Sequence record: OR887633
Origin: Shigella phage vb_GEC_SH_GT
DNA length: 64,000 bases
Direction: 5' to 3' (one strand)
Every line of letters starts with the position of its first letter. Within the stretch, counting starts at the first letter, position 1. The translations under genes and the position numbers were made by a program. Below the pieces are notes generated by a model that made no database searches, was not told the origin of the DNA, and saw only the letters and a list, made by a program, of their open reading frames with translations. Shown in pieces: positions 3,360 to 63,833 of this stretch.

Positions 3360-3667
3360 CGTAAATTCCCTGCAATTGGTATACTAACAATACGCCCAGT
3401 ATCTAAAATTCGCCGATATAATCTTTGTGTGTCTACATCAGGCTTAACATGTTTAACTTCTATTTTATTAAACCAAAACTTGCGTGGAGTCTCAACTAAT
3501 CTCGGAATTCCCATACCTAAAGCTAGTTGATACTGCTCTTTAAGAGTAGTAAATACTTTATCAGCAATCTCCCTTTCAAAAAATACAGCAGGACGATGTT
3601 CATCAAGAGGAACAGGCACCGCAAATCCATCTTTATCTCTATACACTATCGCATATACATAAAACAT
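3356..3667 (-). CDS. hypothetical protein (dda.1 position)
   Basis: 103 aa ORF overlapping dda start by 4 nt (translational coupling). Confidence 0.5.
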   Translation of the reverse strand: MFYVYAIVYRDKDGFAVPVPLDEHRPAVFFEREIADKVFTTLKEQYQLALGMGIPRLVETPRKFWFNKIEVKHVKPDVDTQRLYRRILDTGRIVSIPIAGNLR

Positions 3668-61183: not shown

Positions 61184-61252
61184 TTTATTTCTCCGTTTCT
61201 GTATTTGTTTTGATAAGTCTATAATAACACCGTCCTTGGTGTTTGTACACAA

Positions 61253-61516
61253 TTATTTCATATTATTGAAATATTCTTCTGCGATTTCGTCGTTATCATG
61301 GTAAACTTTAGAAGACAGTTTAACATAACCTTCTGCCGTGAACATGTTAATCACAACCTTTACGGTATACCACTGACCGTCTTCATTACCCATTACTGCA
61401 TAGGTTTCAAACATCGGATGGTCAGGACCGATAACTTTAATATCATTCACTGTACGACCAAAATCTTCTGAAACACATTTCATAAAGAAGTTGAACAGTT
61501 CACCGTAATTATCCAT
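61253..61516 (-). CDS. hypothetical protein (87 aa)
   Basis: Start trimmed from TTG artefact; early promoter 61557..61589. Confidence 0.5.
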   Translation of the reverse strand: MDNYGELFNFFMKCVSEDFGRTVNDIKVIGPDHPMFETYAVMGNEDGQWYTVKVVINMFTAEGYVKLSSKVYHDNDEIAEEYFNNMK

Positions 61517-61556
61517 TTTATTCTCCAAGTTGTTTTCTGTATCAGTAGTTGATAGT

Positions 61557-61589
61557 TGTATAGTACCATGGAAGAACAGGGATGTAAAC
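61557..61589 (-). promoter_or_regulatory. T4-type early promoter (cassette copy)
   Basis: Minus strand GTTTACATCCCTGTTCTTCCATGGTACTATACAAC. Confidence 0.55.
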
Positions 61590-61689
61590 AGTTTAATGAA
61601 AAAATTTTAAAAAAGTTTTAGGGAATTTTAGGGCGAGGAGGGGTAATTAAAAGATAGGATAATATATTATAAAGGGTAGAAACTAAATG

Positions 61690-62060
61690 ATGCCTAGAGA
61701 GGCCCGGAAAGGCCTAGATACCAAAAAGCCCCAACCTTTCGGTCAGGGCTAAGCCTTGCGGCAACCTTGTCGGGGTTCCACCTGCTAAGGCAAGTGTTTG
61801 TACGAAACGCCGGGATTTGAACCCGGTTATTAAGTAGTTGACGCTACTCAATATTTTTAAAAGGCCATATCTCGACCATATCCGAACGTTCCGTCAAAAA
61901 CGCTACTCGGCTTATGGCAAAGATATTTCCTCGAATCGATAATTCGGTGCGCCGTTTCTGCTGTGATATAAGGGGGCATTAACAAAACATAAAGATTTAT
62001 TAATGCCAGTCCTTAAACAGGGAACATCAGTCCGACGACTTGCCGGTAGCGACCCGGCTT
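61690..62060 (-). ncRNA. putative structured small RNA(s) downstream of tRNA-Arg (T4 RNA C/D-like region)
   Basis: No ORF; GC-rich stems; a tRNA-like acceptor/T-arm fragment (ccggg-atttgaa-cccgg at 61810..61826) without a canonical anticodon arm. Confidence 0.3.
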
Positions 62061-62065
62061 CTTGT

Positions 62066-62142
62066 CTGGTCGAGGCAGTAGGGATCGAACCTACGACCCA
62101 GGACTTAGAAGGTCCTTGCTCTTCCTTCTGAGCTATGCCTCG
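62066..62142 (-). tRNA. tRNA-Arg (anticodon UCU)
   Basis: Hand-folded cloverleaf; T-arm GGUUCGAUCC; anticodon loop CUUCUAA; CCA encoded. Confidence 0.85.
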
Positions 62143-62146
62143 TATT

Positions 62147-62221
62147 TGGCGGACGTGATAGGATTCGAACCTATAACCAATCGCTTAACAGGCGATCGCT
62201 CTGCCATTGAGCTACACATCC
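62147..62221 (-). tRNA. tRNA-Asn (anticodon GUU)
   Basis: Hand-folded; acceptor GGAUGUG/CACGUCC; anticodon loop CUGUUAA; CCA encoded. Confidence 0.75.
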
Positions 62222-62225
62222 AAAT

Positions 62226-62312
62226 TGGTGGGGAGTGATGGAGTCGAACCACCCGAGTCGCAATGACAATGGATTTACAGTCCACACCGCTACCTCTACG
62301 GGATAACTCCCC
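62226..62312 (-). tRNA. tRNA-Tyr (anticodon GUA), long variable arm
   Basis: Hand-folded; anticodon loop CUGUAAA; 14-nt variable arm; CCA encoded. Confidence 0.7.
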
Positions 62313-62321
62313 AAATTAATT

Positions 62322-62396
62322 TGGTGGCCCTGGGTGGAATTGAACCACCATCTGGCGATTATGAGTCGCTTGCTTGAACCTTCCAGCTACAGGGCC
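62322..62396 (-). tRNA. tRNA with CAU anticodon (Met or lysidine-modified Ile)
   Basis: Hand-folded; anticodon loop CUCAUAA; CCA encoded; corresponds positionally to T4 tRNA-Ile. Confidence 0.75.
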
Positions 62397-62397
62397 T

Positions 62398-62473
62398 TGG
62401 TGCTGATTGACGGAATCGAACCGCCGACGTCCTCATTACAAGTGAGGTGCTCTACCTACTGAGCTAAATCAGC
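62398..62473 (-). tRNA. tRNA-Thr (anticodon UGU)
   Basis: Hand-folded; anticodon loop CUUGUAA; CCA encoded. Confidence 0.85.
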
Positions 62474-62478
62474 AAAAC

Positions 62479-62568
62479 TGGCGGAGGCGATAGGATTTGA
62501 ACCTATGAGTCGCCGGAGCGACTGCCGATTTTCAAGACCGGTGCATTAAACCACTCTGCCACGCCTCC
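62479..62568 (-). tRNA. tRNA-Ser (anticodon UGA), long variable arm
   Basis: Hand-folded; anticodon loop CUUGAAA; 18-nt variable arm; CCA encoded. Confidence 0.8.
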
Positions 62569-62570
62569 AG

Positions 62571-62644
62571 TCTCCGCGGCAGGATTTGAACCTGCGACAT
62601 TCTGCTCCCAAAGCAGACGCTCTACCAAACTGAGCTACACGGAG
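62571..62644 (-). tRNA. tRNA-Pro (anticodon UGG), CCA not encoded
   Basis: Hand-folded; anticodon loop UUUGGGA; ends at discriminator. Confidence 0.8.
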
Positions 62645-62654
62645 TAAATTAAAT

Positions 62655-62728
<74 letters not shown>

Positions 62729-62733
62729 AAATT

Positions 62734-62820
62734 TGGTGCGAGAAGTGGGACTCGAACCCACAAGGAAATCATTCCGCAGCATTTTAAGTGCTGTGCCTTT
62801 ACCAATTTGACCATTCTCGC
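62734..62820 (-). tRNA. tRNA-Leu (anticodon UAA), long variable arm
   Basis: Hand-folded; anticodon loop CUUAAAA; CCA encoded. Confidence 0.8.
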
Positions 62821-62826
62821 GCTATA

Positions 62827-63435
62827 TTATTTATTACGTGAAAAAGACTGTTCTATCAATTCTGGACACTTTCGTTCTATCCATTTTCTAGCTTTTTGTG
62901 GGCTTATACCTATTATTTTAGCAGCTTTACTAACCCATCCAAATTTAGAATAATCGATTTTAACTAATTCTTCGTAAATTTCATCAGTTAAAATCTTTTC
63001 ATTAATATTTACCAGTAAATGATATAATTTATTATCATTAGCAATTTTAATGAATCTTTTATAGTTTCCGCCTTTACTTAAACCTAATGAAGTAATTGCA
63101 GATGATATAGTAGCTGAATTTAATAGTGCGTTTAAAATTTCTTCATCACTAACATTATAACGCTTTTTATTATTTTTAATATTTTTACCAGCAAAAGTAT
63201 CAGTTTGCGAATGGCAATTTGGACATAATAATCTTAAATTTGATTTAAGATGATTTTTATTATTTCCATCAATGTGGTCTAATTGCAGAACAATATGCTT
63301 ATTTTGCCATTTTGAAATTTTACAAATTGCACACTCATATGGAAAAATATTTTCTTTTATTATTTTGTCTTTCAGCTTTCCTGTACTAAAATTTGGATGT
63401 TTTCCTTCAAAAATTTCAGCTAATTTAGTATCCAT
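62827..63435 (-). CDS. free-standing HNH homing endonuclease abutting the tRNA array
   Basis: Start trimmed to MDTKLAEI; HNH-Zn motif CAICK...LQLDHIDGNNKNH...LLCPNCH; stop 6 nt from tRNA-Leu. Confidence 0.75.
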   Translation of the reverse strand: MDTKLAEIFEGKHPNFSTGKLKDKIIKENIFPYECAICKISKWQNKHIVLQLDHIDGNNKNHLKSNLRLLCPNCHSQTDTFAGKNIKNNKKRYNVSDEEILNALLNSATISSAITSLGLSKGGNYKRFIKIANDNKLYHLLVNINEKILTDEIYEELVKIDYSKFGWVSKAAKIIGISPQKARKWIERKCPELIEQSFSRNK

Positions 63436-63499
63436 AATATAATTCCCAATTATTAACAAAGGCTCTCAAACAAGAACCCTTGATGATAGAGGGTATTAA

Positions 63500-63535
63500 T
63501 CAGTGCGGTATGAGTTAATAATAACAAATAATTCT
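63500..63535 (-). promoter_or_regulatory. putative MotA-dependent middle promoter for the HNH gene
   Basis: Minus strand reads ATGCTTTAA (MotA box TGCTTtA), 12-nt spacer, TATTAT -10-like. Confidence 0.4.
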
Positions 63536-63545
63536 TAAAGCATAT

Positions 63546-63833
63546 TTACCATTTATGATGATACGTATTTACGATACATTCAAGACCCAAAGGATTCTTG
63601 AAAATATCATATTCAAGAGGACCTTTTTCTGTTTCAATAAAGAAATCAAAATTTACTGTATTAAATTTACGGTCTTCCTTCACTAATTTAACCTGAGAAG
63701 ATGAACGGTCAATGTAAACCTTTTCAACTTCAAAACATGTTAAAATGCCATAATCATCAATCAAGGCTTTAGCTGCTTCTTGATCATATTTATATCCATT
63801 TTCAATGGATGATACTTTAGCATAAAGAATCAT
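63546..63833 (-). CDS. hypothetical protein (95 aa)
   Basis: ORF. Confidence 0.5.
   Translation of the reverse strand: MILYAKVSSIENGYKYDQEAAKALIDDYGILTCFEVEKVYIDRSSSQVKLVKEDRKFNTVNFDFFIETEKGPLEYDIFKNPLGLECIVNTYHHKW

Follow-up and report, generated by a model that had tools for sequence, protein, structure and literature searches.

How does a nuclease gene come to stand at the head of a phage tRNA operon, and what became of the gene that would be expected there? The locus that raises this question lies in a 64,000-nucleotide (nt) stretch of DNA from Shigella phage vb_GEC_SH_GT (sequence record OR887633; hereafter the window), where an open reading frame (ORF) for an HNH endonuclease immediately precedes a run of tRNA genes. 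The last 3 kb of the window is the tRNA operon of a T4-like phage of the genus Tequatrovirus, all on the minus strand, and its best GenBank matches in this region reach 94–97% identity over 2.5 kb. In order of transcription it comprises a trna.2 homologue, a spacer, the HNH ORF, nine tRNAs (Leu to Arg, 62820..62067), rnaD, rnaC, a terminator-like hairpin and an e.8 homologue. By alignment with relatives, the HNH gene is an ORF-only cassette that overwrote tRNA-Gln, which otherwise heads the operon of tRNA genes in T-even phages. We consider it likely, from the sequence comparisons below, that it is a free-standing homing endonuclease of the T5 F-TflIV type whose spread deletes tRNA-Gln.

The boundaries of the replacement can be read to the base. 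Where T4 has trna.2, tRNA-Gln and tRNA-Leu, the window has the trna.2 homologue, the HNH gene and tRNA-Leu (Table 1). Homology to T4 runs as far as nucleotide 9 of tRNA-Gln and resumes at the trinucleotide AGC, 3 nt before tRNA-Leu. Phage RB3 has exactly the array of the window (Leu to Arg, rnaD, rnaC) but headed by tRNA-Gln, and gave the same cassette boundaries by BLAST: it aligns at 63559..63440 (99.2%) and at 62823..61206 (97.5%), and between these segments 62 unaligned RB3 bases, tRNA-Gln nt 10–71, face 616 window bases. The cassette consists of the ORF, 4 nt (TATT) before its ATG and 3 nt after its stop codon, and to judge from this content is without regulatory signals of its own. Its junctions are identical in six other carriers read (seven including the window). 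ARAGORN found no tRNA-Gln anywhere in the window. The AGC at the downstream edge, the last 3 nt of the 6-nt spacer before tRNA-Leu, corresponds to the final 2 nt of T4 tRNA-Gln together with the 1-nt Gln–Leu spacer, a 3-nt match that could be chance. The initial annotation had placed the HNH stop codon 6 nt from tRNA-Leu, at the position where a T4-like array would begin with tRNA-Gln, and both points hold. It had also described the gene as abutting the array; the gene does adjoin it, but that description misses that the body of tRNA-Gln was overwritten.

The cassette differs in composition from its surroundings, with a G+C content of 25.8% in the ORF against a window mean of 34.3%, placing it in the lowest 0.3% among segments of equal size. 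An in-frame TTG at 63459 is a possible start upstream of the ATG; the ATG is the start used by orthologues and by GenBank annotations of the gene. Many GenBank records already label it 'HNH endonuclease', 'HNH homing endonuclease' or 'F-TflIV'.

Promoter ownership was a second point to settle, since a MotA-box/-10 arrangement upstream of the gene had been noted initially. The pair is present at 63542..63518, within the 107-nt spacer between the trna.2 homologue (63833..63546) and the HNH ORF and 76–107 nt upstream of the latter; the region as first delimited ended at 63535, just short of the MotA box. By our definition, a MotA-dependent middle promoter lacks a -35 element and has its MotA box some 12 nt ahead of a -10 element of the form TAnnnT. 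The sequence ATATGCTTTA, followed by 12 nt and TATTAT, fits this pattern, (a/t)(a/t)(a/t)TGCTT(t/c)A with TAnnnT. Seven MotA-box/-10 matches occur in the window against 1.4 expected, a number reached in none of 100 shuffles. In alignment with T4 (NC_000866), the trna.2 3' end, MotA box, -10 element and leader are essentially identical, one leader base differing, and in T4, where there is no HNH gene, promoter and leader lead straight into tRNA-Gln. This comparison identifies the promoter as the resident promoter of the tRNA operon and not the nuclease's own, since promoter and leader also occur in T4, which lacks the gene. For the same reason we rejected the idea that the HNH gene brought the promoter in; the initial annotation thus stands as to the presence of the promoter and fails as to its belonging to the gene.

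From its spacing to the -10 element, transcription would start near 63511. The whole leader is no more stable than its shuffles on folding (z -0.77), and folding together with Rfam, which returned tRNAs only, revealed no special RNA element in the leader or in the HNH gene. The sole Shine-Dalgarno-like sequence ahead of the HNH ATG is the GGGA within the tRNA-Gln relic, which may serve the gene as a weak Shine-Dalgarno.

That the gene is an HNH nuclease gene by its sequence, as first proposed, is borne out. The ORF matches PHROG 14736, 'HNH endonuclease', end to end, with the best E value (5.5e-124) among 10 PHROG HNH or endonuclease families that it matches; because this match is full-length, the ORF is not a chance one. 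The motif CAIC...DH...N...CPNCH occurs only once in the window. In an alignment of 59 homologues, reaching down to 37% identity, C35, C38, H54, G57, N66, C71, P72, N73, C74, H75 and T78 are invariant, and D53, preceding the catalytic H54, is kept in at least 90%. The H-N-H catalytic and metal residues D53-H54, N66, N73 and H75 are thus all present, and they align with the core of T5 F-TflIV. The invariant C35, C38, C71 and C74 make up a structural zinc site (CxxC ... CxxC) as in McrA and the Cas9/IscB-type HNH subgroup, and the NCBIfam IscB model matches the HNH part of the protein (E 4.7e-6). On these grounds the ORF belongs to the HNH, or His-Me finger (beta-beta-alpha-metal), nuclease superfamily rather than being a conserved non-nuclease ORF. 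It is also of a family other than that of SegB, the GIY-YIG endonuclease of the T4 tRNA region, as initially stated: Pfam found no GIY-YIG domain in the protein, and BLASTP against T4 SegB gave no similarity (E 2.8).

No solved structure was detectable for the protein by sequence or profile search of PDB. AlphaFold2, run on the 59-homologue alignment, gave a predicted local distance difference test score (pLDDT) of 90.8 and a predicted template modelling score (pTM) of 0.52, a combination that in such a model indicates two domains. The HNH domain takes up residues 1 to about 85; its fold resembles solved HNH domains, and every fold match is a DNA nuclease. Two three-helix modules resembling helix-turn-helix (HTH) domains make up the protein from about residue 95 to residue 202, and the last of these, WVSKAAKIIGISPQKARKWIER, has sub-threshold Pfam HTH matches. 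We picture the protein, as a prediction, with a zinc-finger HNH nuclease domain at its N terminus and a bipartite HTH region for binding DNA at its C terminus.

The HNH gene is a polymorphism of the locus. In the phage collection, the slot upstream of tRNA-Leu is occupied by HNH in 63 records and by tRNA-Gln in 446, counting records that include RefSeq/GenBank duplicates and not independent phages; about 12% of records thus have the HNH allele, and about 88% run the tRNA operon without it. Some 1000 Tequatrovirus records matched the tRNA region as a whole. The carriers are nearly uniform. The HNH protein is at least 99% identical in 58 records, and the cassette is 99.1% identical among seven carriers (0–9 differences in 629 nt), against 93–97% for the adjacent trna.2 gene in the carriers (8–20 differences in 300 positions), making the cassette 3–7 times less diverse than its neighbour. 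Presence or absence at one locus among close relatives, with sharp boundaries, is one mark of a free-standing homing endonuclease gene. A sporadic, near-uniform, compositionally foreign and sharp-edged cassette would be the expected signature of such a gene spreading recently. The initial suggestion of an independently acquired element agrees with this comparative picture of polymorphism, low diversity and foreign base composition.

The allele is found on at least five array types and in two upstream contexts. These include the RB3/T2L-type array (window, VEc74), the same array plus tRNA-His (Ozark, KarlGJung), a T4-type array with segB (T4_ev151), a Tyr-segB-Arg array (BP32) and an array with a GIY-YIG gene in place of tRNA-Pro (CM8). 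RB3-, slur11- and T4/RB32-type arrays also exist carrying tRNA-Gln, and KIT03 is a tRNA-Gln-bearing relative of the CM8 type that retains extra tRNAs. Either allele is seen with and without the ORF RB32ORF135c upstream.

The initial annotation had further linked acquisition of the gene to changes in the tRNA set, and here it does not hold. Loss of tRNA-Gln is, by these comparisons, the only tRNA change tied to HNH; the remaining features, Met/Tyr/Asn and no segB, are those of the RB3/T2L-type array, and T2L has the same tRNA order as the window. We rejected a link to the other tRNA differences, since RB3 has the same array with tRNA-Gln and HNH co-occurs with segB elsewhere. A link to a tRNA-Pro variant was likewise tried and rejected: the variant was found in four of six carriers and none of five non-carriers, but it occurs in about 200 records, known non-carriers among them. 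Two haplotypes of this tRNA (62570-62644) exist among these phages, the window having the one found in about 200 records, with about 12 differing positions that, read by eye, seem to fall in the anticodon and T arms.

Relatives of the gene outside these phages also keep to tRNA genes. Orthologues of 68% and 58% identity were found in metagenomic T4-like contigs in the same syntenic place, in the order gp2, gp3, gp1, 57A, 57B, trna.4/.3/.2, HNH, tRNAs. Five more full-length homologues (40–43% identity) lie in unrelated phage contigs, one of 465 kb, all inside tRNA clusters and 11–260 nt from the nearest tRNA, with one overlapping a tRNA. Counting the window, L008–L010, L018, L020, L022, L024, L026 and T5, tRNA genes lie close by in each of the ten contexts looked at, no more than 260 nt away in nine and 515 nt away in L010. 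The homologue search as a whole gave 3127 hits. A scan of IMG/VR with the HNH protein confirmed no relatives, and tblastn with the 68% orthologue found no closer GenBank phage.

Some of these contexts have features of their own. In L020:3001-3637, on a metagenomic phage contig, the HNH homologue P0008 ends (at 3573) inside the 5' acceptor stem of tRNA-Lys(ttt), which starts at 3564; cleavage by ribonuclease P (RNase P) would therefore remove the P0008 stop codon. In L018 and L022 the stop codon of the homologue is followed by what resembles the anticodon arm of a tRNA-Lys truncated at its 5' end. The operon of the 68% orthologue (L008:3828-4700) begins with tRNA-Met and an intact tRNA-Gln, followed by HNH with a strong Shine-Dalgarno (AAAGGGGAG). 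The roughly 25 nt after its HNH stop weakly resemble the 5' end of tRNA-Leu; ARAGORN and Rfam detected no tRNA in this stretch, and its folding was not significant.

Allele structure, distribution and family together lead us to propose nuclease activity, a target site and homing. When carrier and non-carrier infect the same cell, the HNH-less allele would be nicked or cut by the enzyme within tRNA-Gln or close to it, this being the one sequence missing from the carrier allele. Recombinational repair from the carrier genome would then copy the cassette in and delete the recipient's tRNA-Gln.

Several observations weigh against this proposal. In the literature searched we found no paper describing the HNH gene, the tRNA-Gln replacement or its enzymology, and no biochemical or genetic test of the protein. 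T-even phages recombine freely, and an allele on many backgrounds does not alone prove nuclease-driven spread. Across 13 loci there was no flanking single-nucleotide polymorphism (SNP) splitting carriers from non-carriers and no co-conversion tract, and the carrier and non-carrier counts above contain duplicate records. The Pfam HNH model (PF01844) scores the protein at 17.3 bits, below its gathering cut-off of 21.4. Finally, the intact tRNA-Gln of L008 ends 14 nt before the HNH start, indicating that the target need not lie inside tRNA-Gln. Because L008 keeps tRNA-Gln upstream of HNH, the original insertion of this lineage was probably at the Gln/Leu boundary; the Tequatrovirus allele would either have lost the tRNA-Gln body later or have gained the cassette by a replacement event.

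Among other explanations the one that survives best, which we nonetheless regard as unlikely, is that an active nuclease is encoded whose cleavage does not drive the spread of the cassette; the latter would have been acquired once and moved about by the very high general recombination of T-even phages, and the enzyme would serve some other role, such as exclusion through damage to the DNA of competing phages or of the host. The missing carrier-specific flanking SNPs and co-conversion tract speak for it, as does the tRNA-Pro haplotype, which looked linked in the small sample and is common in non-carriers. T4 marker exclusion by Seg and Mob enzymes is moreover itself a form of competition (PMC2330249). 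Its difficulties are the reduced diversity of the cassette relative to the adjacent gene and an allele restricted to a small fraction of records yet found on many backgrounds. The residence of relatives in tRNA clusters of unrelated phages also fits target-specific insertion better than passive carriage.

Homing endonuclease genes often degenerate once fixed, and the cassette could be a decaying, inactive remnant persisting in a dispensable part of the genome. The weak Shine-Dalgarno drawn from the tRNA relic and the low Pfam score would suit such a remnant, but the ORF is complete and full-length in eight carrier sequences read directly, and tblastn gave full-length matches in 82 records covering at least 80% of the HNH query. 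Eight catalytic and zinc residues are invariant in the 59 homologues, with D53 nearly so; the predicted C-terminal DNA-binding region is 41–69% identical among orthologues, and the allele is at low frequency, not fixed. We judge decay somewhat less probable still than spread by general recombination. That the protein acts on RNA or on tRNA-operon expression, as a processing factor or as a repressor via its HTH modules, is very improbable: it would be co-transcribed with the tRNAs, its stop codon adjoins one, and its C-terminal modules could bind the operon's own DNA, but most related phages run the operon without it, its N-terminal fold matches are all DNA nucleases, and neither gene nor leader has a special RNA element.

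As a homing endonuclease gene within a tRNA operon, HNH would be expressed in a particular way, which we draw by homology to T4 and by analogy with segB. For T4, PMC2330249 (with reference to Broida and Abelson) attributes most transcription of segB and the tRNA cluster to a middle promoter immediately preceding the cluster, the place where the promoter described above lies, and gives a transcript of about 1.75 kb that ends after the species I RNA. HNH would likewise be transcribed from the operon's MotA-dependent middle promoter as the 5' cistron of a long pre-tRNA transcript, probably with added read-through from upstream early promoters. If RNase P cuts at the 5' end of tRNA-Leu, the HNH mRNA would finish 6 nt beyond its stop codon. 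Such processing probably holds HNH expression low, as tRNA processing was proposed to limit expression of segB and of the T5 F-Tfl genes (PMC2330249).

Table 1. Features of the tRNA operon and the HNH cassette in the window, in order of transcription.
Feature	Position	Strand	Basis and remarks
trna.2 homologue, 95 aa (amino acids)	63546..63833	-	PHROG 2023; conserved upstream neighbour, left flank, outside the element
MotA box TGCTTTA	63536..63542	-	Pattern match, identical to T4 at the homologous place; begins 3 nt past the trna.2 stop
-10 element TATTAT	63518..63523	-	12-nt spacer after the MotA box
Predicted hairpin in the ~76-nt leader	63457..63482	-	RNA fold; also in T4 with one base difference
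tRNA-Gln relic, first 9 nt, TGGGAATTA	63440..63448	-	T4 alignment and RB3 BLAST; followed by TATT, then the HNH ATG
HNH cassette, 616-nt heterology	62824..63439	-	Stands for the 62-nt tRNA-Gln body (nt 10–71)
HNH endonuclease ORF	62827..63435	-	202 aa plus stop; ATG 63435..63433, TAA 62829..62827
Zinc-finger HNH core, C35-x2-C38 ... D53 H54 ... N66 ... C71-P-N73-C74-H75	63211..63333	-	Motif scan and alignment
Spacer TATAGC, 6 nt	62821..62826	-	Separates the HNH stop codon from the tRNA-Leu 5' end
tRNA-Leu(taa)	62734..62820	-	ARAGORN; now head of the tRNA array
Eight tRNAs: Gly, Pro, Ser, Thr, Met(CAT), Tyr, Asn, Arg	62067..62728	-	ARAGORN/Rfam; collinear with RB3
rnaD	61946..62065	-	100% identity to annotated RB3 rnaD
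rnaC	61801..61939	-	97.8% identity to annotated RB3 rnaC
Terminator-like hairpin and T-run after rnaC	61727..61750	-	Consensus scan

The transcription unit probably ends at the hairpin after rnaC. The small stable RNAs of T4, rnaD and rnaC, are not represented by any Rfam family. The tRNA at 62322-62396 is called Met (CAT) by ARAGORN, and its GenBank homologues are variously annotated as Met, Ile or Ile2; in the RB32 record the homologue has tRNA-Ile identity elements with a CAU anticodon.

The operon varies elsewhere as well. The T6 array (L013:2610-3901) runs Gln, Leu, Gly, Thr, Met, Tyr, a 666-bp ORF and Arg, without tRNA-Pro or tRNA-Ser; the ORF, in the segB position, is annotated 'serine recombinase' and is probably a mis-annotated SegB-like gene. 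In some phages an extra 516-bp ORF, RB32ORF135c, separates trna.2 from the tRNA promoter, lying about 10 nt ahead of the MotA box: VEc74 (L002:3537-4052), CM8 (L004:3005-3520), RB32 (L014:2005-2520) and KIT03 (L017:2005-2520). It is absent from the window and T4, and its presence or absence is independent of the HNH state.

A second homing-type gene, of the GIY-YIG family, stands in place of tRNA-Pro in Shigella phage CM8 (L004:4447-5055), KIT03 (L017:2851-3501) and PEC04 (L012:2898-3506). About 20 nt resembling the 5' end of tRNA-Pro precede its ATG, and its stop lies 6 nt before tRNA-Ser. The first 115 aa of the product are 83% identical to T4 SegB; the C-terminal half is unrelated (NUMOD3 and HTH), but over 24 aa its HTH shares 50% identity with the one at the C terminus of the HNH protein in the window. 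This looks like domain shuffling between nuclease families inside one operon.

Phage tRNA genes are thought to help against host codon bias and tRNA-destroying host defences, and for this reason differences in tRNA content between close phages are a live question. The present locus would be a base-precise case in which the spread of a selfish nuclease necessarily deletes a tRNA gene, each conversion to carrier removing tRNA-Gln. It also supplies natural matched pairs that differ only at the slot, the window with RB3 and KarlGJung/Ozark with slur11. Such pairs suit the question of whether tRNAs are lost to homing elements or to selection on translation, and that of whether the T5 F-TflIV family reads tRNA genes.

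More tentatively, a widespread lineage of HNH homing endonucleases may be specialised for phage tRNA arrays, with sites inside tRNA genes, spreading by overwriting dispensable ones. Together with SegB-type GIY-YIG genes, which are seen replacing tRNA-Pro likewise, it might be a main cause of the rapid tRNA-repertoire turnover in T-even and other phages. RNase P, in processing the pre-tRNA transcript, would set the dosage of the nuclease. We hold this broader reading with considerable doubt. If true, this lineage overwrites genes instead of inserting between them or hiding in introns, and its members are natural gene-drive knock-outs. The locus itself leaves the general picture of homing endonucleases unchanged.

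The closest characterised relative of the HNH protein is T5 F-TflIV (HegA), with 35% identity over 170 aa (pairwise E 2e-22). Aligned are the zinc-finger HNH core (LxLxH.DGN...NL.LLCPNCH) and a short stretch of the C-terminal HTH; between them the alignment consists mostly of gaps, and nothing in it corresponds to the middle helical module of the protein from the window. F-TflIV also resides in a tRNA cluster, starting 23 nt after tRNA-Ile2. It is longer (227 aa), with an extra N-terminal LuxR/GerE-type HTH (residues 8–42) that the window's protein lacks, and its host phage belongs to a different family, Demerecviridae. In the classification of PMC5714182, F-TflIV and the T4 Mob proteins share His-Me finger group 1.

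T4 SegB offers the nearest parallel in situation, being encoded in the same operon under the same middle promoter. Its ORF, too, is wedged in among tRNA genes, only 5 nt lying between its stop codon and the tRNA that follows, and it is absent from close relatives. Experiments have shown that SegB cleaves within tRNA genes and causes the region to be inherited preferentially (PMC2330249). Its GIY-YIG fold is unrelated and without sequence similarity to the HNH protein, and its site, between tRNA-Ile and tRNA-Arg, differs from the tRNA-Gln slot, as the initial annotation had it. Since segB and HNH co-occur in some phages, they are independent elements.

MobA–E of T4 and its relatives are of the same class, free-standing HNH homing endonucleases in the same phage group, likened to the window's protein by class and by His-Me finger group 1 (PMC5714182). 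For MobE, homing has been demonstrated (PMC2988022). The mob loci lie elsewhere (nrd genes, gene 39 and others) and are inserted between genes, not overwriting one. According to PMC5966550 (citing Pope 2014) and PMC7589089, no coding sequences are more widespread than HNH genes within the tRNA arrays that mycobacteriophages and Mycobacterium plasmids carry, and it has been suggested that they generate diversity of the tRNA repertoire. Those arrays belong to unrelated hosts and phages and are likened here by description; the reports are correlative, without base-precise replacement of a tRNA. Homing endonucleases in the T-even tRNA operon have thus been known since SegB, and HNH genes in tRNA regions from T5. 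What the present locus adds is modestly new: a tRNA gene overwritten, with base precision, by a cassette that is little more than an ORF, and a nuclease family that consistently resides in tRNA clusters.

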